Assembly: GCA_965279165.1 (NCBI GenBank)
Contig: OZ257140.1
Coordinates: 24,262 to 88,261, forward strand
DNA from: Bacteroidia bacterium
GTDB lineage: Bacteria; Bacteroidota; Bacteroidia; UKL13-3
Length of the DNA stretch: 64,000 nt
Direction: 5' to 3'
The position numbers and the translations under genes are program-made. Numbering within the stretch: position 1 is the stretch's first letter; every line of letters starts with the position of its first letter. Positions 4,346 through 46,898 of this stretch are shown piece by piece. Below the pieces are notes generated by a model. That model saw only the letters and a program-made list of their open reading frames with translations, was not told the origin of the DNA and ran no database searches.

Positions 4346-6268
4346 ATGAATCGTAAATTATTCCTTCTCTCATGCTTATTTATTTATCTGGGTAATGTTT
4401 CTGTAAAGGCACAATCCGTTTGTGCAATGGTAAAATCCTCGGGTTTAACCGGTACAGATGCAACACAAGCCGACATAGCCAAAATGCACCAATATGATGT
4501 ACATTATTACAAACTGGATTTGCATATTGAAAACAATACCCGATTTATTCATGGAAATGCGATTGCTATGGCCACGGTTGTCGGTGATTTAAATACGATG
4601 GTTCTGCAATTACATCCTTCCTTAATTGTCGATTCTGTTTTTATCAACGATAGTTTAACATCCTTTAGTCGCGTTACGGATGCTTTAAGTATTGAATCAG
4701 CAAAGTTACTCACTGCAAATTCATTGGTCAAAACACAGGTTTATTATCATGGAACACCGCCTACTACCAGTAATGGTGCCATAGGCCTTGGCTTTTCAAA
4801 TAATGCTGCAAATAACGTCACATGGTCTTTAAGCGAACCATATGCCGCACTCGAATGGTGGCCATGTAAACAAATATTAACGGATAAAGCCGATTCATCC
4901 GAAGTATGGATAACAACCGACTCTGTGAATAAAGCAGGATCAAATGGTTTGCTGAAAAGTGTCACGCCAATGGGAGGCTCAAAAGTGAGATACGAATGGA
5001 AATCGACTTATCCAATTGCCTATTATTTAATTTCGGTTGCTGTGGCACCTTATGAAGAATATAATCTGTATGCCCATCCGGCAGGTGCCGATTCTATTTT
5101 GATTCAAAACTATATTTATAAAAATGCCGCATCGGATGTAAAAATGTCCATTGATTATACTCCGGCGATTTTGGAAGTGATGTCGGATAAATTTGGGATG
5201 TATCCATTTGCCGCCGAAAAGTATGGACATTGTCAGGCTGAAATAGGAGGCGCCATGGAGCATTCTACCATGACCACTATTGGGTATTTTGATTTCGATA
5301 TTATTGCACACGAATTGGGACACCAATGGTTTGGAGATTATGTTACTTGTGGCAGCTGGACCGATATCTGGCTTAACGAAGGATTCGCCAGTTATAGTGA
5401 ATATGTGGCTATAGAAGGAATAAGACCCGAATTCAAAAGAAATTGGCTACTCAATTCCATGAACACAGCAAAGAATGCCGAAGGTACTGTTTATGTAACC
5501 GATTCTTTGAATGTACCTGTTGTATTTGACCCTTATTCAACCTATGCCAAGGGAAGTGTTTTATTGCACATGTTACGATACGAATGCAACAACGATTCTT
5601 TATTCTTTAAAGGAATCAGAGATTATTTGCAAGATCACGAACACAGCAACGCTTTTGCATTAGATTTTAAAAACAGAATGGCTGCAACCATGGGTAAAAA
5701 TCTGGATTATTTTTTCGACCAATGGTATTACAATCCGGGTTTTCCAATAATAAATGGAAAATGGAACCAAAGCGGCAACCGAATGTGGTTACTATTAAAG
5801 CAATCGCCAACTGTTGGAAATACCATTTTCAAAACATCCATCGACATCACATTCCAACATTCAACAGGAGATACAACCATCCGTATTTGGTTTGACCAAC
5901 AAAGCCAAGAGTTTCCTTTCGACATGGGAGCCTATAAAATAGAGTCGATAAAGATTGACCAACAAAATAATCTACTTAAAGAAGTAATCAGTATCGCAAA
6001 GGATGTAACCTTGGGAATATCGGAAGGGGAATTTGCTGCCATATCTAATATCTTACTTTATCCAAACCCTTCCAATGATAGAATAAATATTCGTAATGGT
6101 AAAGGGGGTAAAATGGAAGTTTTTGATATGTCGGGCAAACTAAAAGAAGAACAAGTTTTAACCGGAGATGATACAGGTTTATCGGTTAAAGATTGGGATA
6201 ATGGTATCTATTTAGTGAGGTTCAGTAAAAACGAAAAAGTTTCCCATCTCAAATTTGTAAAAAATTAA
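4346..6268 (+). CDS. M1-family zinc metallopeptidase (aminopeptidase N-like) with T9SS C-terminal domain
   Basis: 640 aa with signal peptide. GAMEH (GxMEN-like), HELGHQWFGD and WLNEGFASY (HExxH-x18-E). C-terminal domain LYPNPSNDRINI...GIYLVRF. Confidence 0.85.
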   Translation: MNRKLFLLSCLFIYLGNVSVKAQSVCAMVKSSGLTGTDATQADIAKMHQYDVHYYKLDLHIENNTRFIHGNAIAMATVVGDLNTMVLQLHPSLIVDSVFINDSLTSFSRVTDALSIESAKLLTANSLVKTQVYYHGTPPTTSNGAIGLGFSNNAANNVTWSLSEPYAALEWWPCKQILTDKADSSEVWITTDSVNKAGSNGLLKSVTPMGGSKVRYEWKSTYPIAYYLISVAVAPYEEYNLYAHPAGADSILIQNYIYKNAASDVKMSIDYTPAILEVMSDKFGMYPFAAEKYGHCQAEIGGAMEHSTMTTIGYFDFDIIAHELGHQWFGDYVTCGSWTDIWLNEGFASYSEYVAIEGIRPEFKRNWLLNSMNTAKNAEGTVYVTDSLNVPVVFDPYSTYAKGSVLLHMLRYECNNDSLFFKGIRDYLQDHEHSNAFALDFKNRMAATMGKNLDYFFDQWYYNPGFPIINGKWNQSGNRMWLLLKQSPTVGNTIFKTSIDITFQHSTGDTTIRIWFDQQSQEFPFDMGAYKIESIKIDQQNNLLKEVISIAKDVTLGISEGEFAAISNILLYPNPSNDRINIRNGKGGKMEVFDMSGKLKEEQVLTGDDTGLSVKDWDNGIYLVRFSKNEKVSHLKFVKN

Positions 6269-8575: not shown

Positions 8576-8691
8576 CGGTCAGTAAAAAGTAAATGTTAAT
8601 TGGTAATAATGAGGCTGAGATCCTTTGCGTTCTCTGCGAAAAATCTTCGTGTGCTTTGCGGTTAAAAATCTGTTTAATCTGTGGCTATAAA
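8576..8691. repeat. Flanking unit (type X) of the 105-bp repeat array
   Basis: Starts gcaatcagcggtcagt and ends aatctgtggctataaa, like the 105-bp units. The core differs: cctttgcgttctctgcgaaaaatcttcgtgtgctttgcggttaaaaatctg. A sister copy lies at 9112-9215. Confidence 0.8.
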
Positions 8692-9111
8692 GCGGTCAGT
8701 ATTCAGGGGATAGTGGTTAGTGAAACCGCTCACATTTTGGCTTCATGCCAAACGAGAGAATTCTTCTGTGTAATCTGTGAAATCTGTGGCTAAAAAGCGG
8801 TCAGCATTCAGGGGATAGTGGTTAGTGAAACCGCTCACATTTTGGCTTCATGCCAAACGAGAGAATTTTTCTGTGTAATCTGTGAAATCTGTGGCCAAAA
8901 GGCGGTCAGCATTCAGGGGATAGTGGTTAGTGAAACCGCTCACATTTTGGCTTCATGCCAAACGAGAGAATTCTTCTGTGTAATCTGTGAAATCTGTGGC
9001 TAAAAAGCGGTCAGTATTCAGGGGATAGTGGTTTGTGAAACCGCTCACATTTTAGCTTCATGCCAAACGAGAGAATTCTTCTGTGTAATCGGTGAAATCT
9101 GTGGCTAAAAA
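8692..9111. repeat. Tandem repeat, 4 x 105 bp
   Basis: Copies start at 8692, 8797, 8902 and 9007 (period exactly 105 bp) and differ by only a few substitutions. Each contains the hairpin tttggc-ttcat-gccaaa and a gcggt...accgc pairing. Three of the four copies end in an in-frame taa. Confidence 0.95.
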
Positions 9112-9215
9112 GCAATCAGCAGTCAGTCAATGGTCATACGGTGTCTGCAATCCTTAGCGCCCTTTGCGTAAAATCTTCGCGTCCTTTGCGGTTAAAAATC
9201 TGTGGCTAAAAAAAG
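9112..9215. repeat. Flanking unit (type X) of the 105-bp repeat array
   Basis: gcaatcagcagtcagt ... ccttagcgccctttgcgtaaaatcttcgcgtcctttgcggttaaaaatctgtggctaaaaa. Direct repeat of 8576-8691. Confidence 0.8.
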
Positions 9216-24325: not shown

Positions 24326-24397
24326 GGTCTCGTAGTACAACGGATAGTATAGAAGTTTCCGAAGCTTTTGATTCAGGTTCGATTCCTGACGAGACCA
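24326..24397 (+). tRNA. tRNA-Arg (anticodon CCG)
   Basis: Cloverleaf read by hand: GGTCTCG TA GTAC AACGGATA GTAT A GAAGT TTCCGAA GCTTT TGAT TCAGG TTCGATT CCTGA CGAGACC A. Perfect acceptor stem. No encoded CCA. Confidence 0.85.
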
Positions 24398-24442
24398 CAT
24401 ATTTATTCTTGCGTAAGCGCTTAACATAAAAGATTATTTCAA

Positions 24443-24690
24443 TTCAGGTTCCCTGCCTGACTGCGTCACGCAGGCAGGGATTCCTGACGAGACCACGATT
24501 TATTCGCGCATAAGTTCTAAGAATAAAAGCAACTTTCAATTCAGGTTCCCTGCCTGACTGCGTCACGCAGGCAGGGATTCCTGACGAGACCACGATTTAT
24601 TCGCGCATAAGTTCTAAGAATAAAAGCAACTTTTAATTCAAGTTCCCTGCCTGACTGCGTCGCGCAGGCGGGGATTCCTGACAAGACCAC
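24443..24690 (+). repeat. Three 97-bp repeats of the tRNA-Arg(CCG) 3' half with a hairpin inside the T-loop
   Basis: Units start at 24443, 24540 and 24637. Each reads ttcaggttc + cctgcctgactgcgtcacgcaggcagg + gattcctgacgagaccac + a ~45-nt trailer homologous to the trailer of the intact tRNA (24398-24442). Confidence 0.9.
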
Positions 24691-24750
24691 ATGAATCAGA
24701 GTGAGAGTGAGAGTGGGAGCGGTTCCAACGATTGAATTGTATCAGAAGAA

Positions 24751-24789: not shown

Positions 24790-24849
24790 CCCAACAAAAC
24801 TTGAAGCAGACATTTGGAAGGTGAAAATATTTTCACAAACATCATCCAA

Positions 24850-25347
24850 ATGAAAATTATACTTCGCCTTGTGTTGAGCCTGTTTCTTTATATGCCAATA
24901 CTAAATGCCCAGGTTTCTGTTCAAATAAATATTGGTAGTCCTCCAATGTGGGGCCCCGTAGGTTACCAGGAAGCACGTTATTATTACATTCCGGATGTGG
25001 AGGCTTACTATGATATCCATACCTCTATGTTCATTTACTACAGTGGCGGAATATGGATGCATCGCAGCTATCTGCCAGGTCGTTATCGGAATTATGATTT
25101 GTACTCAGGTTACAAAGTGGTTTTAACCAATTATCATGGCGATAGGCCATATTCAAATTATTCGCATCACAAACACCAATATGCGAAAGGCTATAAAGGT
25201 TCGTACCAACAAAATAGAGGTCATAAGCCGGGAAATAACAATGGCAATGTACACCAAAACAGTTCATCAAATCACGATCAACATGCAGGAAATAATGGCA
25301 ACAAAAATCAAAAACAATCTAACGGTAAAGGAAAAAGCCAACACTAA
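24850..25347 (+). CDS. Hypothetical secreted protein with Asn/Gly/His/Gln-rich tail
   Basis: Start placed at ATG 24850 (MKIILRLVLSLFLYMPILNAQ signal peptide). Tyr/Trp-rich core and a low-complexity C-terminus. Confidence 0.6.
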   Translation: MKIILRLVLSLFLYMPILNAQVSVQINIGSPPMWGPVGYQEARYYYIPDVEAYYDIHTSMFIYYSGGIWMHRSYLPGRYRNYDLYSGYKVVLTNYHGDRPYSNYSHHKHQYAKGYKGSYQQNRGHKPGNNNGNVHQNSSSNHDQHAGNNGNKNQKQSNGKGKSQH

Positions 25348-25758: not shown

Positions 25759-26316
25759 ATGAAAAAATCATTTTTAATTATATTACTTATTCTGTCTGGA
25801 TTAGGTAAATCACATGCCCAAGAGAGTTATGGCAATACTTTAAACTTCGGAATTGGGGTAGGCGGATACTCCGGGTATTACGGTTATGTTAATCGTTCAA
25901 TGCCGGTATTGCACCTTAACTATGAGTTTAATGCTGCAAAAAATTTCACCCTGGCTCCATTCATTTCTTTCTACACATACACCAATACTTATTGGTGGGG
26001 AAATAACAACAGACCGTATGCATATTATACTTACAGAGAAACCGTTATTCCAATTGGCCTAAAAGGTACATTTTATGCCGATCAATTGCTGGCCTTAAAC
26101 AACAAATGGGATATTTATTTGGCCGGATCCTTAGGATTTGCATTGGTAGAAGCTTCTTGGGAAAATGGGTATGATGGAGATAAGAATTATTACCATAGAG
26201 GTAGTAACTTATTTCTTGATATTCATATTGGTGCCGAATACCATTTTAGCAAGAGAATAGGTGGCTTTGTTGATTTATCAAGCGGAGTTTCTACGATTGG
26301 AATTGCCATTCATTAA
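25759..26316 (+). CDS. Small outer-membrane beta-barrel protein
   Basis: 185 aa with signal peptide. Alternating aromatic/glycine beta-strand pattern and a C-terminal aromatic-rich strand. Confidence 0.6.
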   Translation: MKKSFLIILLILSGLGKSHAQESYGNTLNFGIGVGGYSGYYGYVNRSMPVLHLNYEFNAAKNFTLAPFISFYTYTNTYWWGNNNRPYAYYTYRETVIPIGLKGTFYADQLLALNNKWDIYLAGSLGFALVEASWENGYDGDKNYYHRGSNLFLDIHIGAEYHFSKRIGGFVDLSSGVSTIGIAIH

Positions 26317-27923: not shown

Positions 27924-27982
27924 TTCCAGGATTTCAGACTGCTTTTTTTATGGTTAAAAATTGCTTTACGTATTTGAAATGG

Positions 27983-29827
27983 ATGAATTTGCGTATACTT
28001 TTTATCTGTATAATTGTAGGCGTCGCTTTCTTTTTTCCATACCAATCTCAGGCGCAAAATGGAAAAGATTCGGTTGTATTTTACAAAAGACTCTTTGAAA
28101 AAGCAAACAAGCATGCATGGTCACGATGGTTATATAATATTACCATTAAAAGTTCAGTCGTAAAAGGAAAAGACAGCGTTTTTATAGCAGTTGTAAAAAA
28201 CAAAAAAAATCCCTTTCAGTCAAGTAAAGGAAAATATATCCGGAGTATTAATATAGTTGTACTCGATCCTTTCGGGTATTCTGTTGATGAATTTGTCGGA
28301 ACCAAACCTTCCTATATGGAAAGGGTTGGTAATAAACTACACAGTACATCTAAAGAAAAGATGATAAATAATATGCTTCTTTTCAAAGAAGGAAGCATAG
28401 CAGATCCACTAAAAATGAGCGAATCTGAACGTTTACTTCGCCTTTCTCCTTATGTTTATGACGCACGTTTGTATGTTTATAAACTTAAAAAATCGTCTAA
28501 GGACTCAATAGATGTATTGGTGCTTGTGCAGGATAAATGGACCACTTTTGTATGGAGTAGTTTCAATATTACGGTACCAAATTTAACCATCAAAGAGTCC
28601 AATTTTCTCGGTCTCGGACATCAGATCGAAGAAAATGTGAGTTGGCAAACCGGTAGGGGATATATAGAAACCAGAGGTAAATACTCAATTTACAATATAA
28701 AACGCTCGTACATACAATCCGATTTGTTTTATGCCGACTTAACCGATAGGCAGGAGTTTGGTGCCGCTTTGAATCGACCCTTTTACTCCCAATTGGCAAG
28801 ATGGGCAGGTGGTATAACTACAATTAGAAACAATACAATTATTGCCCCGTTGAATATTGAAGGTAGTATCGTAACTCCCTATGCCATCAATTATAACACT
28901 TTCGATGTTTGGGGTGCAGTAGGTTTTGCCGTCAAAAAACCACTTATACCTGTTGCCGATCTTCGCATCATTAGACTATTAACAGGGGCTCGTTACTATA
29001 ATAAAACATATATTAAACGCCCTTCATTTGATATAGATACCGGGCTATACAATCAAAATGAAAATTTGTACCTAATCAATTTCGGAATCACTAAACAATC
29101 TTATTACAGGGATAGGTATTTGTTTCGCTTTGGTGCCAATGAAGATATTCCTGAGGGGGCTTACTTTGAAATCTTACCGGGTTATTTAACCAAAGAATTA
29201 TCTGTTCCATTGTTTTATACCGGATTCAATATTGGAATAGGAAACCATATTGAAAAATTTGGCTATCTATCCACCAATTTAGGTTTCGGAACCTTTTATG
29301 AAAATGGAAATGCCAGAAATGGAGTGCTCAATTTGAGCGCTCTTTACTTTACTGATTTACTACGCATAAACAGATGGCATTTTCGACAATTTGTTCGTTT
29401 CAAATTTGTAAATGGATTTCGCCAGACCAATAATGCAATGCTCTTGTTTAATAGCGATGAAATGTATGGACTTTCCAGCGACCTTATAAAATCAAAATCG
29501 AAGGTGGTGCTCAATTACGAATTTCTGATTTATGCACCGTACAAATTACTTGGATTTCAATTTGCACCTGTTTTGTTTATAGGTTTGGCAGGATTGGCAA
29601 ATGACTACAATTTATTGCTTAAAGGTCAGATTTATCATGCCTATGCCATCGGTATCCTCATACGGAATGAATACTTAATTGCAGGTACCTTTCAAGTGTC
29701 TATTGGAATATATCCCTATATGCCCGGCAGCTCTGATTTTCTCATCAAAACCAACCCAATATCCAACTACAATGTCAGGGCTAGGGATTTTAGAATCTCA
29801 AAACCTGAATTGGTACCTTACAACTAA
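27983..29827 (+). CDS. Outer-membrane protein, POTRA-like segment plus beta-barrel (Omp85-superfamily-like)
   Basis: Start placed at ATG 27983. Signal peptide ends SQAQ. POTRA-like block IRSINIVVLDPFG..LLFKEGSIADPLKMSESERLLRLSPYVYDARLYV..DSIDVLVLVQDKW, then ~400 aa of beta-strand-like sequence. Confidence 0.45.
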   Translation: MNLRILFICIIVGVAFFFPYQSQAQNGKDSVVFYKRLFEKANKHAWSRWLYNITIKSSVVKGKDSVFIAVVKNKKNPFQSSKGKYIRSINIVVLDPFGYSVDEFVGTKPSYMERVGNKLHSTSKEKMINNMLLFKEGSIADPLKMSESERLLRLSPYVYDARLYVYKLKKSSKDSIDVLVLVQDKWTTFVWSSFNITVPNLTIKESNFLGLGHQIEENVSWQTGRGYIETRGKYSIYNIKRSYIQSDLFYADLTDRQEFGAALNRPFYSQLARWAGGITTIRNNTIIAPLNIEGSIVTPYAINYNTFDVWGAVGFAVKKPLIPVADLRIIRLLTGARYYNKTYIKRPSFDIDTGLYNQNENLYLINFGITKQSYYRDRYLFRFGANEDIPEGAYFEILPGYLTKELSVPLFYTGFNIGIGNHIEKFGYLSTNLGFGTFYENGNARNGVLNLSALYFTDLLRINRWHFRQFVRFKFVNGFRQTNNAMLLFNSDEMYGLSSDLIKSKSKVVLNYEFLIYAPYKLLGFQFAPVLFIGLAGLANDYNLLLKGQIYHAYAIGILIRNEYLIAGTFQVSIGIYPYMPGSSDFLIKTNPISNYNVRARDFRISKPELVPYN

Positions 29828-43299: not shown

Positions 43300-44019
43300 A
43301 TGGCAAAAACACCGCCCTTTAAACAGATGATTATCCATGAAGATGAAAATCTGATAGTGATCAACAAGCCTTCCGGAATATCATCTCTCGACGAACGCAA
43401 CAACGAATCTCCTTCTATATTGAGTTATGTGCGTAAATACGAACCAAATGCACAATTATGCCACCGTATCGACAAAGAAACATCCGGTATTCTTGCCATT
43501 GCCCGTAACCCTGAAACATACCGCGAAATGGCTATCTTATTCGAAAAAAGAACGATTCAGAAATGTTACCATGCAGTGGTGAATGGACAACTTGCAGTAA
43601 ATAACCAGGTGATTTTGTTACCCCTTGCTACCACCAAAAATGGTTTGGCAAAAGTAGATATGAAAGAAGGTAAACCTGCCGAAACCATCATTAACACACT
43701 TAAAATTTATAAGCATTATACCTTATTAGAATGTAAACCCATTACAGGAAGATTGCATCAAATAAGAATCCACCTTGCATCCCAAAATTTTCCTTTGGTA
43801 GGTGATGTAAGTTATGGAGGAAAAATACCATACCTGTCAAAACTGAAACGCGATTTTAAAACATCAAAATGGGAAAACGAACAAGGCATGTTCCAGCGTG
43901 TTGCATTGCATTCCTATCAGTTACAATTTACCTTGTACGAAAAGGATTATAATATCATTGCTCCTTACCCAAAAGACTTTGATGTTCTCATCAAACTTTT
44001 AGAAAAACACGATAGCTAA
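43300..44019 (+). CDS. RluA-family pseudouridine synthase
   Basis: HRIDKETSGILAIA catalytic-Asp motif and GRLHQIRIHL motif. 239 aa with no S4 domain. Confidence 0.85.
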   Translation: MAKTPPFKQMIIHEDENLIVINKPSGISSLDERNNESPSILSYVRKYEPNAQLCHRIDKETSGILAIARNPETYREMAILFEKRTIQKCYHAVVNGQLAVNNQVILLPLATTKNGLAKVDMKEGKPAETIINTLKIYKHYTLLECKPITGRLHQIRIHLASQNFPLVGDVSYGGKIPYLSKLKRDFKTSKWENEQGMFQRVALHSYQLQFTLYEKDYNIIAPYPKDFDVLIKLLEKHDS

Positions 44020-44100: not shown

Positions 44101-45257
44101 ACCATTAAGCTTGACTTGTCAATCGTCTTATAATCCCTTCAGTTTTTAAACATTGATATTTTATACACCATTAAGCCTTGCTTACCACTCTTCTTATAAT
44201 CCCTTCAAAGATTAAACACGATTAAACCTGAATTCCCATACGTCTTAAAATCCCGTCAGGTATTAAACATTGATATTTCATATACCATCAAGCCTCGATT
44301 GCCATACGTCTTATAATCCCTTCGGTTATAAAACAGTGATAGTTTAAACAAGATTAAGCCTCACTTGCCACTCGTCTTATAGTCCCGTCAGCGATTAAAC
44401 AATGATTGTTTTAAACACGATTAAACCTGAATTCCCATTCGTCTTAAAATCCCTTCAGGTATTAAACAATGATTGTTTTAAACACGATTAAACCTGAATT
44501 GCCACTCGTCTTATAATCCCTTCAGGTATTAAACAGTGATAGTTTAAACAAGATTAAGCCTCACTTGCCACTCGTCTTATAATCCCGTCAGGTATTAAAT
44601 ATTGATATTTCATACACCATTAAGCCTCACTTGCCACTCGTCTTATAATCCCGTCAGGTATTAAATATTGATATTTCATACACCATTAAGCCTGACTTGC
44701 CACTCGTCTTATAATCCCGTCAGCGATTAAACATAGATAATTAATATACCATTAAGTCTGACTTGCCTCTCGTCTTATAATCCCGTCAGCGATTAAACAT
44801 AGATAATTAGTATACCATTAAGCCTCATTTACCACTTGTCTTATAATCCCGTCAGGTATTAAATATTGATATTTCATACACCATTAAGCCTCACTTGCCA
44901 CTCGTCTTATAATCCTGTCAGGGATTAAACATAGATAATTATATACCATTAAGCCTGACTTGCCACTCGTATTATAATCCCGTCAGGGATTAAACATAGA
45001 TAATTAATATACCATTAAGCCTCACTTACTACCCGTCTTATAATCCCGTCAGGGATTAAATATTGATATTTCATACACCATTAAGCCTCACTTGCCACTC
45101 GTCTTATAATCCTGTCAGGGATTAAACATAGATAATTATATACCATTAAGCCTGACTTGCCACTCGTATTATAATCCCGTCAGGGATTAAACATAGATAA
45201 TTAATATACCATTAAGCCTCACTTACTACCCGTCTTATAATCCCGTCAGGGATTAAA
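44101..45257. repeat. Tandem array of 18 units of ~66 bp, each with the palindrome AATCCCGTCAGGGATT
   Basis: Unit anchors (attaagcc / attaaacc) at 44104, 44170, 44221, 44288, 44353, 44420, 44487, 44553, 44619, 44685, 44751, 44817, 44883, 44948, 45014, 45080, 45145, 45211. No ORF of 60 aa or more on any frame between 44020 and 45401. Confidence 0.95.
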
Positions 45258-45285
45258 CATCGGTAACCGATGCGGAACGCATCGG
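45258..45285. other. Two overlapping, mutually exclusive GC-rich hairpins at the array boundary
   Basis: catcggt-a-accgatg (45258-45272) and ccgatgcg-gaa-cgcatcgg (45267-45285) share 45267-45272. Confidence 0.8.
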
Positions 45286-45309
45286 ACTAACTAACCTGCG
45301 ACAAGATCG

Positions 45310-45325
45310 AATCCCGTCAGGGATT
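45310..45325. repeat. Isolated 19th copy of the palindrome AATCCCGTCAGGGATT
   Basis: Perfect copy 56 bp beyond the last array unit, outside the 66-bp register. Confidence 0.9.
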
Positions 45326-45401
45326 CTACATCGCCGTAATCATTAAAAAACAGATAAACATAATCCGTCGTGTAGACTGTTTAAATATCTCCTAAACCCA
45401 T

Positions 45402-46898
45402 TCAATTTACTTCATCTACCAACGCAACCACCATCACTTCCTCATTTCTAAAAATCTCTTTTTTGATAAATGGCGTCCATCTTGTATCCTTCATCTCTGC
45501 ATTATCCGTCACATATGCATACTTAGCACCTCGCTCAATAGCATCTTCTATAAAAGTTTTGCCATTCCATTGCAATGCAAACGCATCCCCGGGTTTATCA
45601 AAACAAAATCCTTTCTTATGTAAGAAATAAAAATTAATACATCCCGAAACATCAGGCCCGGTTACAATAAGTTCTTTGTTGCCGATTAAATTTTCTAATG
45701 CGGCTCTTGTTTTCGGTTCGTAAAAACTGGCTTTAATTCCTTCCTGGCCCTTTGCCCATCGTGCAGGGATAATTCTAATGGAAGCAAAAATAGGGGATAG
45801 CAAGAGCAAAAGAATTGCTACCCACTTTAACTTTTCTTTCAAATAAGAAAATCCAAGTGCTGCTACCAAAAACAACAATGGAAAATAAGGAAGCATATAA
45901 TATTGGTGAACGCCCATCTGACCCAATTCAATGAGGTGATAGACAATTAAAGCAATAGTCCATACCAATATTGGTTTAAATAAAACATGTTGCCTTATAT
46001 TCTTTTTAAAGAAAACATATACACCAGCTGTAAAAAGAATAAACGAGGAATAACCAAGCAACAGTTCAGGTAAATCGCTAACCAGGTTTTGCTTTAAAAT
46101 ACCCAAACCTTTTATCAAATCTGTTTCAGGATGAAAAACAATTCCCACATCCTGTAACCCTGATTGATTAATCAAATACCGAGCGTAAATGTACCAGGAA
46201 ACACAAGCTGTAACGCCAATCAATCCGGTAATCAAGGCAATAAATATGGATTTGCCGGAATACTTTTTTTTAAGTATATCTTGTATAAAAACCACAAATA
46301 CCGGAATCCCTGCTGCTAAATATTGTAGCTTGGTTAAACCAGCCAAACTAATCAGCAAAAGCGAAGCAACCAATGCTAGATAAGATTGTTGATTTGTTCG
46401 GAATTTAAAAAAGAAATACATCCCCCAAATACTACAAGCCATTGCCAAAATATCGGGCATGGCATTAATACCATGGTAAAAAAGTTCCGGACTAAAGGCC
46501 AATAAAAAACTTCCTGCAAATGCGGTGGTTTCATTTAATGCTATCGATTGTAACCAGCGATAAAAGCCAATAATGGCCAATAAATACAATGCAAGACTGA
46601 ACCACCGACTAATATTTTCATGTATGCCAAAAATCTTGTACAGCAATGCCAGCAGCCATTCATAGCTTAAAAACTGACTTCCGGTAATTCCTTTGGTATC
46701 CATTCTCCGATCTACTTTTGGCTCCAGAATTTGCATCCCTTCTTCTACAAAATTCCGCGCCATAGATAAGGTTAACGTTTGTCGCCAAACATGGATGCTC
46801 CTTGGAGGTTCTTGCATAAATGGAAGATGCAATAAAGTGGCCAATGCAACCAACCAAAATAGTTTTCTGTTGCCGGCAAAAATCCTGCTTAACTGCAT
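45402..46898 (-). CDS. Polytopic membrane glycosyltransferase (GT39/ArnT-PMT-like, uncertain)
   Basis: 498 aa with about 11 hydrophobic helices. N-terminal loop SIHVWRQTLTLSMARNF resembles ArnT-like enzymes (recollection). C-terminal soluble domain. Confidence 0.5.
   Translation of the reverse strand: MQLSRIFAGNRKLFWLVALATLLHLPFMQEPPRSIHVWRQTLTLSMARNFVEEGMQILEPKVDRRMDTKGITGSQFLSYEWLLALLYKIFGIHENISRWFSLALYLLAIIGFYRWLQSIALNETTAFAGSFLLAFSPELFYHGINAMPDILAMACSIWGMYFFFKFRTNQQSYLALVASLLLISLAGLTKLQYLAAGIPVFVVFIQDILKKKYSGKSIFIALITGLIGVTACVSWYIYARYLINQSGLQDVGIVFHPETDLIKGLGILKQNLVSDLPELLLGYSSFILFTAGVYVFFKKNIRQHVLFKPILVWTIALIVYHLIELGQMGVHQYYMLPYFPLLFLVAALGFSYLKEKLKWVAILLLLLSPIFASIRIIPARWAKGQEGIKASFYEPKTRAALENLIGNKELIVTGPDVSGCINFYFLHKKGFCFDKPGDAFALQWNGKTFIEDAIERGAKYAYVTDNAEMKDTRWTPFIKKEIFRNEEVMVVALVDEVN

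Follow-up and report, generated by a model that had tools for sequence, protein, structure and literature searches.

What occupies the stretch of 1.38 kb that separates the convergent genes for an RluA-type pseudouridine synthase and a PMT_2/GT39-type glycosyltransferase in the chromosome of a Bacteroidia bacterium (GenBank assembly GCA_965279165.1, contig OZ257140.1)? In the 64,000 nucleotides of this contig that were analyzed here (henceforth, the window), this stretch is filled by 18 tandem hairpin-bearing units (U1 to U18, from left to right) and a solitary 19th copy, for which a preliminary description made from the sequence alone had proposed a protein-loading or an RNA role. Comparison with sequences from other genomes and metagenomes indicates that the gene-free stretch is most likely a mobile-DNA cluster that resembles REPs (repetitive extragenic palindromes), and not a centromere, a CRISPR array or an RNA gene. 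We consider it likely that the array is an atypical REP-like cluster, probably seeded by a Y1 transposase of the HUH superfamily, that grew by unequal recombination or slippage.

Tandem Repeats Finder (TRF) delineates an array at 44212-45260 with a period of 66 bp (15.9 copies, 85% matches) and a higher-order period of 197 bp (5.1 copies). Manual parsing extends it to 18 contiguous head-to-tail units at 44104-45251, all of 65-67 bp except for the truncated U2 (51 bp, 44170-44220), which confirms the number and size of units given in the preliminary description. That the interval is non-coding is confirmed as well, given that no open reading frame (ORF) of at least 40 aa was found between 44019 and 45402. 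Each unit consists of a conserved part of ~47-50 nt and a variable part of 16-22 nt; the tail module, of roughly 19-22 nt, recurs, as previously noted, in four main versions. The hairpin of the units is AATCCC-GTCA-GGGATT, and the unpaired flanks are kept, with TATA on the 5' side and AAAT or AAAC... on the 3' side. With up to three mismatches allowed, AATCCCGTCAGGGATT occurs 17 times, always within 44198-45325, against 0.55 occurrences expected by chance. The solitary copy is also where it had been reported, with its palindrome at 45310-45325; there, GGGATT is followed by CTACATCGCCGTAATC, and this is the only copy in which CTAC, that is, GTAG on the opposite strand, directly follows the stem on its 3' side. 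The array has a GC skew of -0.30 on the plus strand, the G-rich minus strand being the sense strand of the glycosyltransferase gene.

The earlier statement that every unit is built around a 16-bp palindrome holds only in part: the hairpin-bearing units are real, but the palindrome is perfect only in U14, U15, U17, U18 and the solitary copy, i.e., in 5 of the 19 copies. A single C>T change is present in U13 and U16; 4-5 of the 6 pairs are kept in U3 and in U5 to U12, and 3-4 of the 6 in U1, U2 and U4. The loop GTCA is changed to TTCA in U1, U2, U6 and U7, and to TTCG in U4. The two inner C-G pairs are unpaired in 6-7 of the 15 distinct units, and no compensatory (two-sided) pair changes were detected among these 15, the comparison of aligned units that the preliminary description had suggested as a test for RNA covariation. 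In the older units, the hairpin is thus undergoing decay and is not maintained. The two 197-bp blocks of three units at the right end are 100% identical over their first 178 bp; judging from this comparison, the latest growth step is a block duplication.

A search for the repeat outside the window, which had also been suggested at the outset, revealed a family of related elements (the loci are denoted by L numbers). A metagenome scan with a 21-mer from the window, ATAATCCCGTYAGGGATTAAA, yielded 31 loci that share ATAATCCCGTYAGGGATTAAAT followed by a GGTAG/ATAG-AAA tag. In these loci, a conserved tail similar to AAATRTYGGTAGAAA comes after the hairpin, which has a stem of 5-7 bp, and the tag, (G)GTAG/ATAG-AAA, lies ~8-9 nt 3' of the stem. 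Many of these loci contain short series of tandem copies spaced at 47-57 bp, and in some of the series the stems differ (GTCCC/GGGAC, TGCC/GGTA) whereas the loop is still GTA, GTTA or GTCA; a search of the window itself for other hairpin families with stems like GTCCC...GGGAC had no result. With 19 copies, the array in the window is the longest in the sample, compared to at most 11 elsewhere. A scan of species-representative genomes with TAWAATCCCKTCAGNNATTAAA, in a collection without the source genome, produced 19 single hits and no array. Most of these hits look like chance matches in unrelated, probably coding sequence, but two metagenome-assembled genomes (MAGs) of Bacteroidota (L007 and L018) contain true relatives, with a shared 25-mer that reaches past the hairpin into both flanks. 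A scan of viral contigs gave 0 hits.

The relationship between the array and this family was assessed with R1, a covariance model built from 31 outside copies without the search 21-mer; the E-values are rough owing to a shortened calibration. The model matches 13 array units, all on the plus strand, with E-values from 4e-6 to 0.034, the next best match in the entire 64 kb having an E-value of 0.54. The scores, like the integrity of the hairpin, drop from right to left along the array. For block 2 (Table 1), the model gives 37.5 bits at 45166-45213 and 34.7 bits (E 1.9e-5) at 45232-45279; the solitary copy is matched with 24.7 bits (E 0.005, plus strand) and U8 to U12 with 21-24 bits (E 0.007-0.034); among U1 to U7, U3 is matched with an E-value of 0.029 and U7 with 6.2, and the rest are unmatched. 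The most canonical family sequence is that of U18, TATAATCCCGTCAGGGATTAAACATCGGTAACC, which can be compared to ...GGGATTAAATATCGGTAGAAAC in L045 and ...GGGATTATATCTGGGTAACCAAC in L053. U1 to U17 have the hairpin and its immediate flanks in common, and their tails have diverged into the four versions. By these measures of similarity, the array belongs to a hairpin-repeat family that, as detailed below, flanks transposase genes of a particular Y1 subclass.

A second hairpin located 3' of the main one, which seemed to covary in L022, L045, U18 and the tail types A and C, was considered as a defining feature of the family and rejected. Over 63 family copies, its median folding z-score is ~0, and only 11% of the copies have a z-score below -2, so that it is an occasional feature. 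In a minority of copies (L022 780-806; L045, minus strand, ~6417; L007; L050), the GTAGAAA tag lies in the loop of this second hairpin, the arms of which vary by locus (AATGTTG/CAACATT, ATCGGTA/TACCGAT).

In other Bacteroidota/FCB-group genomes, the family is physically linked, as single copies or as tandem series of ~50 bp, to a gene for a Y1/HUH enzyme. A 153-aa ORF with the Y1_Tnp domain lies within ~110 bp of the motif in L022/L028, L027, L029 and L030; in L022, this ORF (Pfam E 1.9e-31) lies between a series of 4 units and a series of 7 units in the opposite orientation, and the homologs from L027, L029 and L030 are 61-76% identical to the L022 protein. Six additional loci (L053, L057, L059, L060, L061 and L063), which include MAGs labeled as Ignavibacteriaceae, Sphingobacteriales and Chitinophagales, were retrieved through the Y1 protein only. 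Hairpin-plus-tag elements adjoin the Y1 gene in all six, and all R1 matches in these loci lie within ~850 bp of that gene, with none in the other 14-20 kb. For example, TAATCCCGTTAGGGATTA is present at position -84 relative to the Y1 gene in L060, and the exact AATCCCGTCAGGGATT of the window is found 320 bp downstream of the Y1 gene in L063; in L057, a 3.2-kb gene-free gap upstream of the Y1 gene contains no tandem array. Altogether, copies flank the Y1 gene in ten loci, namely these six together with L022, L027, L029 and L030. The element is also present in several long metagenome contigs with no Y1 gene nearby (L031, L038, L046 and L051).

The layout around these Y1 genes resembles that of REPtrons, with copies in both orientations (L022 764-925 and 1426-1741; L053 9670-10632; L060 9729-10855). 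Within one locus, the stems differ (ATCCC/GGGAT, GTCCC/GGGAC, GTGCT/AGCAC, TTATTCC/GGAATAA), and what stays constant is the GT(N)A loop together with the ...GGTAGAAA tag. Directly upstream of the Y1 gene in L053 (4714-9681), there is a defense-type cluster, arranged alike in four samples, that encodes a D12 methyltransferase, a DpnII-like endonuclease, DndB and an N6_N4 methyltransferase.

The linked enzymes can be assigned to a known subclass. The 153-aa ORFs of L022, L027, L029 and L030 contain the motifs DHIH or NHxH, WQEGYG, and YIKNQETHH or YINNQEKHH, and thus carry the motifs of TnpA-Y1 subclass 1.2, for which the HuH motif is DH[IV]H, the W motif is WQ, the Y motif is YIKNQKEHH-like and the length is ~148 aa (Table 1, PMC6006769). 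The Y1 proteins score 83.6 bits against the IS200/IS605 model of NCBIfam (NF033573), above its cut-off of 55, and the nearest solved structures are those of the TnpA proteins of ISDra2 and IS608. Several members are labeled "REP element-mobilizing transposase RayT" by the Joint Genome Institute, apparently a general label for Y1 transposases. The group of Y1 homologs comprises at least 8000 protein clusters and occurs in Bacteroidota, Ignavibacteria and other phyla. The Y1 gene is found in the same neighborhood in several samples and not as many identical copies. In the survey of Quentin et al. (2018; PMC6006769), subclass 1.2 is listed as lacking REPs, and no later description of repeats for this subclass was found in the limited literature searched, which is not proof of novelty. 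The association of subclass 1.2 Y1 genes with REPtron-like hairpin repeats, which is based on about ten loci, may therefore be new.

The similarity to REPs, bacterial interspersed mosaic elements (BIMEs) and REPtrons, the last of these being systems of E. coli, Pseudomonas and Stenotrophomonas that include a REP-associated tyrosine transposase (RAYT, or TnpA-REP), involves several features. The units contain a short imperfect palindrome that can fold into a hairpin, and the unpaired sequence on either side of it is conserved; they are extragenic and located between convergent genes or downstream of genes; in L022, L053 and L060, a Y1/HUH gene present once has copies of both orientations around it; and, as in REP clusters, the units are reiterated in tandem together with adjoining DNA (PMC3733652). 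There are, however, clear differences. The canonical REP descriptor includes GT[AG]G located 0-2 nt 5' of the hairpin foot (PMC6006769, PMC3733652), whereas the units in the window have TATA at this place; the family has its tag 3' of the stem instead, this tag being absent from most of the window units, and the family stem is short. BIMEs alternate in orientation, whereas the array is purely head-to-tail. Finally, the linked enzyme belongs to the IS200-like subclass 1.2 (Y---Q--HH), in contrast to the canonical RAYTs, which are of class 2 (Y---NP). Since the 5'-foot GT[AG]G is missing and the enzyme falls outside the class 2 RAYTs, the array, despite working like a REP/REPtron, is not counted here as a member of that class but is classified as an atypical, REP-like variant.

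Two other comparisons place the enzyme and its repeats among known systems. The linked genes resemble TnpA-Y1 subclass 1.2, as surveyed by Quentin et al. (2018; PMC6006769), in their motifs, length of ~150 aa, Bacteroidota-type hosts and stable single locus, and differ from the surveyed genes in being flanked by hairpin repeats, often in tandem. By analogy with the subterminal hairpins of IS200/IS605 elements and with their non-autonomous derivatives, the palindrome-associated transposable elements (PATEs), the hairpin would be recognized in single-stranded DNA by the Y1 enzyme, which in sequence is closest to the TnpA proteins of ISDra2 and IS608. Unlike IS200/IS605 elements, the loci contain no pair of left and right ends delimiting a mobile unit but a series of many hairpins, and the Y1 gene resides in one neighborhood in several samples. 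The claim that the array could not be matched to any described repeat family is hence superseded; the resemblance to REPs essentially amounts to a match to a known repeat class, an outcome that the preliminary description had itself counted against its proposals.

Several observations weigh against a REP-like cluster seeded by a Y1 enzyme. A tblastn search with the L022 Y1 protein detected no Y1 gene in the 64-kb window, and scans with the palindrome and with R1 found the element at only one locus within it. Most of the units lack the conserved GGTAG tag, and the left part of the unit, of ~40-41 nt (ATTAAGCC...CGTCTT), which is present in U1 to U17, is not matched by anything in the outside copies. 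Because a 21-mer derived from the window served to retrieve the metagenome loci, the comparison is biased in its central 21 nt, a bias that the protein-retrieved loci partly offset. Furthermore, the Y1 proteins score 32 bits against the NCBIfam RAYT model (NF047646, REP_Tyr_transpos), below the cut-off of 80, so that the term "REP" is used here in a functional and not in the canonical sense. To our knowledge, the enzymes of subclass 1.2 have not been studied biochemically.

Comparison with the nearest relatives identifies the array as an insertion. In the two closest ones found (L020 and L021), the gene order is kept over more than 15 kb and the glycosyltransferase homologs are 56-58% identical to the one in the window (compared to ~43% in Hymenobacter, the best named relatives), but the 3' ends of the PMT_2 and pseudouridine synthase genes overlap or abut (11497 vs 11477 in L020; 9961 vs 9958 in L021), and R1 has no match in either locus. 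The 1.38-kb spacer is thus a lineage-specific insertion and not a conserved regulatory region. The convergent orientation of the two flanking genes and their families, as given in the preliminary description, were confirmed by the Pfam search, and the array is located downstream of both. The window is an ordinary Bacteroidota chromosome segment with ~37% GC that encodes DnaG, ArgRS, polyphosphate kinase (Ppk), RNase P RNA, several type IX secretion sorting domains, DUF1573 and PspC. A Pfam scan that covered 39 of the 46 listed ORFs of at least 150 aa (five right-end ORFs from 60150 and two antisense overlapping ORFs were left out) detected no Cas, ParA/ParB, Rep, helix-turn-helix (HTH) partner, recombinase or Y1 transposase domains. 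Neither the two flanking proteins nor P0001 had an exact match on record.

These observations can be combined into the following scenario. One or two copies, corresponding to U18 and the solitary copy, would have been inserted between convergent genes that otherwise abut. The inserting enzyme would be a Y1 transposase encoded elsewhere in the genome and acting on the folded hairpin in single-stranded DNA; we infer this because the TnpA of IS200/IS605 and the TnpA-REP of E. coli are known to bind folded single-stranded DNA hairpins and to cleave at a nearby short motif (PMC6006769). A copy, together with ~40 bp of adjoining DNA, would then have given rise to the 66-bp units through unequal recombination or replication slippage. 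As the sequence shows, the latest step was the duplication of the 197-bp three-unit block at the right end, and the older, leftward units are decaying, with no selection to keep the hairpin. If the array has a role today, for example in separating or terminating the two convergent transcripts in the manner of E. coli REPs, that role would be a secondary one; a REP-like effect of this kind may exist.

With this assignment, an unmatched 1.2-kb array becomes a representative of a recognizable class of selfish or domesticated DNA. Moreover, small Y1 enzymes of the IS200-like kind, which form a widespread group, seem from these data to have hairpin repeats of their own in a REPtron-like arrangement. 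If this is confirmed, REP-type systems extend beyond the class 2 RAYTs, and the hairpin plus AAATNTNGGTAGAAA would provide a simple, testable substrate for the HUH enzymes of subclass 1.2. In MAGs of Bacteroidota, assembly breaks and gene-free gaps are also explained by such arrays.

A broader proposal is that the hairpin-plus-tag repeats are unrecognized REP-type substrates of Y1 subclass 1.2, that the enzyme itself builds the head-to-tail series, and that the window contains the longest such series in the sample, a polar record of successive insertions at the array end that adjoins the glycosyltransferase gene. This is a tentative idea that we regard as rather doubtful. Its counterpart for the locus at hand, in which the array arose by repeated head-to-tail Y1 insertion at the right-hand end and is a polar record of transposition and not a product of recombination or slippage, seems unlikely to us. 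It would account for the polar decay, with intact copies on the right and degenerate ones on the left, and for the regular head-to-tail series of ~50 bp that are common beside Y1 genes in other loci; enzymes of the IS200/IS605 type insert beside a short target that is regenerated by their own end (for the biology of the family, see PMC6006769). However, the 197-bp duplication includes three different unit types and is identical over 178 bp, which is not what insertion of single units would produce; the conserved tag, presumably a requirement for cleavage, is missing from most of the units; and the 66-bp unit includes ~40 bp from outside the family element. Unlike growth by recombination or slippage, enzyme-catalyzed repeated insertion is thus disfavored by the multi-unit block duplication and by the loss of the tag, both of which, as read from the sequence, argue against it.

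An RNA role, in which the array consists of structured RNA modules or is a long 3' UTR of the glycosyltransferase gene selected for stabilization or termination between the convergent genes, appears quite improbable. The position downstream of both genes and the G-rich minus strand, in the sense of PMT_2, are compatible with such a role, E. coli REPs are described as acting as 3' UTR elements in a preprint (bioRxiv 10.64898/2026.03.23.713779), and the terminal 106 nt (45240-45345) fold well, with z-scores of -3.5 on the plus strand and -2.6 on the minus strand. The single units, however, fold no better than shuffled sequences (z-scores from +1.3 to -1.7), many pairs are broken, and the lack of two-sided changes described above leaves no sign of covariation. 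No Rfam match to the array was found at the gathering threshold in a scan of the whole window, and matches up to an E-value of 10 are at chance level (E >3); nor were there Rfam matches in 18 related loci or tRNA or tmRNA predictions in the array. A promoter and terminator scan of the array identified no terminator-like site and fewer promoter-like sites than in shuffled sequences. The relatives L020 and L021 manage without any spacer. The structured RNA modules of the preliminary description accordingly receive no support from these comparisons.

That the copy number is an assembly artifact and the real locus contains far fewer units is very improbable in our assessment. Two identical 178-bp blocks are present, short-read assemblers mis-size such arrays, and many of the contigs that carry family members are only ~1 kb long, suggesting breaks at these repeats. 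But U1 to U12 differ at many positions and can be uniquely ordered, and the array sits in a contig of 3.28 Mb; only the last duplication is at risk of being an artifact.

We give very little credence to a protein-loading site in double-stranded DNA (centromere, iteron or nucleoid-organizing site), at which the palindromes would bind a dimeric protein as in sopC of the F plasmid. The array does resemble sopC and iterons in consisting of tandem direct repeats, each with an inverted repeat, and E. coli BIMEs bind the integration host factor (IHF) and gyrase, as cited in PMC6006769. Unlike sopC, however, the array is chromosomal, in 64 kb of housekeeping context with no partition, replication or HTH partner genes among the scanned ORFs; it is missing at the syntenic site in L020 and L021; its palindromes are mostly imperfect, with the inner pairs frequently broken; and elsewhere the hairpin is linked to a transposase acting on single-stranded DNA. 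The comparison with plasmid centromeres and iterons made in the preliminary description is therefore not supported, and of the protein-loading role proposed there only the mention of recombinase binding comes loosely close, given that the family flanks Y1/HUH genes. A degenerate or orphan CRISPR-like array, suggested by the regular ~66-bp period typical of a repeat plus a spacer, the hairpin within the conserved part, the polar decay and the minus-strand units that begin with GTTTAATCCCTGACGGGATTATAAGAC and resemble a CRISPR repeat, can hardly be entertained, in agreement with the initial assessment, because the conserved part is too long, the variable part recurs in four versions, the scanned ORFs contain no Cas domains and the outside family flanks Y1 and not cas genes.

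Table 1. Features of the array and its flanks (positions in the window)
Feature	Coordinates	Strand	Basis and remarks
PseudoU_synth_2 gene, RluA-type pseudouridine synthase, left flank	43300..44019	+	Pfam PF00849, 1.1e-29; not part of the element, marks the insertion site
U1-U7, oldest and most degenerate units	44104..44552	+	Alignment, per-unit counts; 3-5/6 hairpin pairs
U8-U12, intermediate units	44553..44882	+	Core 43-46/47 identical to the consensus; one broken pair (GGG>GGT or GCG)
Higher-order block 1, U13-U15, tail types B', B, A	44883..45079	+	TRF period 197
Higher-order block 2, U16-U18	45080..45276	+	Sequence comparison with block 1
Two overlapping alternative hairpins in the terminal spacer	45258..45285	+	Sequence reading; CATCGG-TAA-CCGATG and CCGATGCG-GAA-CGCATCGG
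19th, solitary copy, same orientation	45303..45350	+	GAATCCCGTCAGGGATTC then TACATCGCCGTAATC; perfect palindrome at 45310-45325
PMT_2/GT39-type glycosyltransferase gene, right flank	45402..46898	-	Pfam PF13231; not part of the element

Other repeats were noticed in the window. The gene for tRNA-Arg(CCG) at 24326-24398 is followed by three tandem units of 97 bp (region 24326-24700), each with a G+C-rich hairpin, CCCTGCCTG...CAGGCAGGG, and, after it, a terminal copy of the tRNA 3' end, GATTCCTGACGAGACCAC. ORFs with no Pfam match lie downstream (24814-25347, 25759-26316 and 27950-29827). From its sequence, this region looks like a set of reiterated attachment-site copies left by integrative elements at the tRNA gene. 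A second intergenic tandem array, at 8667-9126, consists of 4.4 copies of a 105-bp unit (94% matches) that includes ATCTGTGAAATCTGTGGCTAAAAA as well as a hairpin, TTTGGCTTCATGCCAAA; related ...CTTTGCGGTTAAAAATCTGT... sequences lie on both sides of this array, which represents a repeat family different from that of the array at 44104-45325. Given this second, unrelated array, the genome seems prone to intergenic tandem arrays.

Two minor observations concern other sequences. The segment 26716-26789 (minus strand) matches the Rfam family snoR160, a plant C/D-box snoRNA, just above the gathering threshold (43.6 vs 42 bits, E 5e-4); as the segment is intergenic, AT-rich and bacterial, this match is most likely spurious. 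In L018, the solitary hairpin copy lies beside a G+C-rich repeat, GGGTTGGGAGAGGTCT, present in 2.9 copies at 4770-4880 with inverted CCCCTC/GAGGGG pieces, which is another type of extragenic repeat in that MAG.

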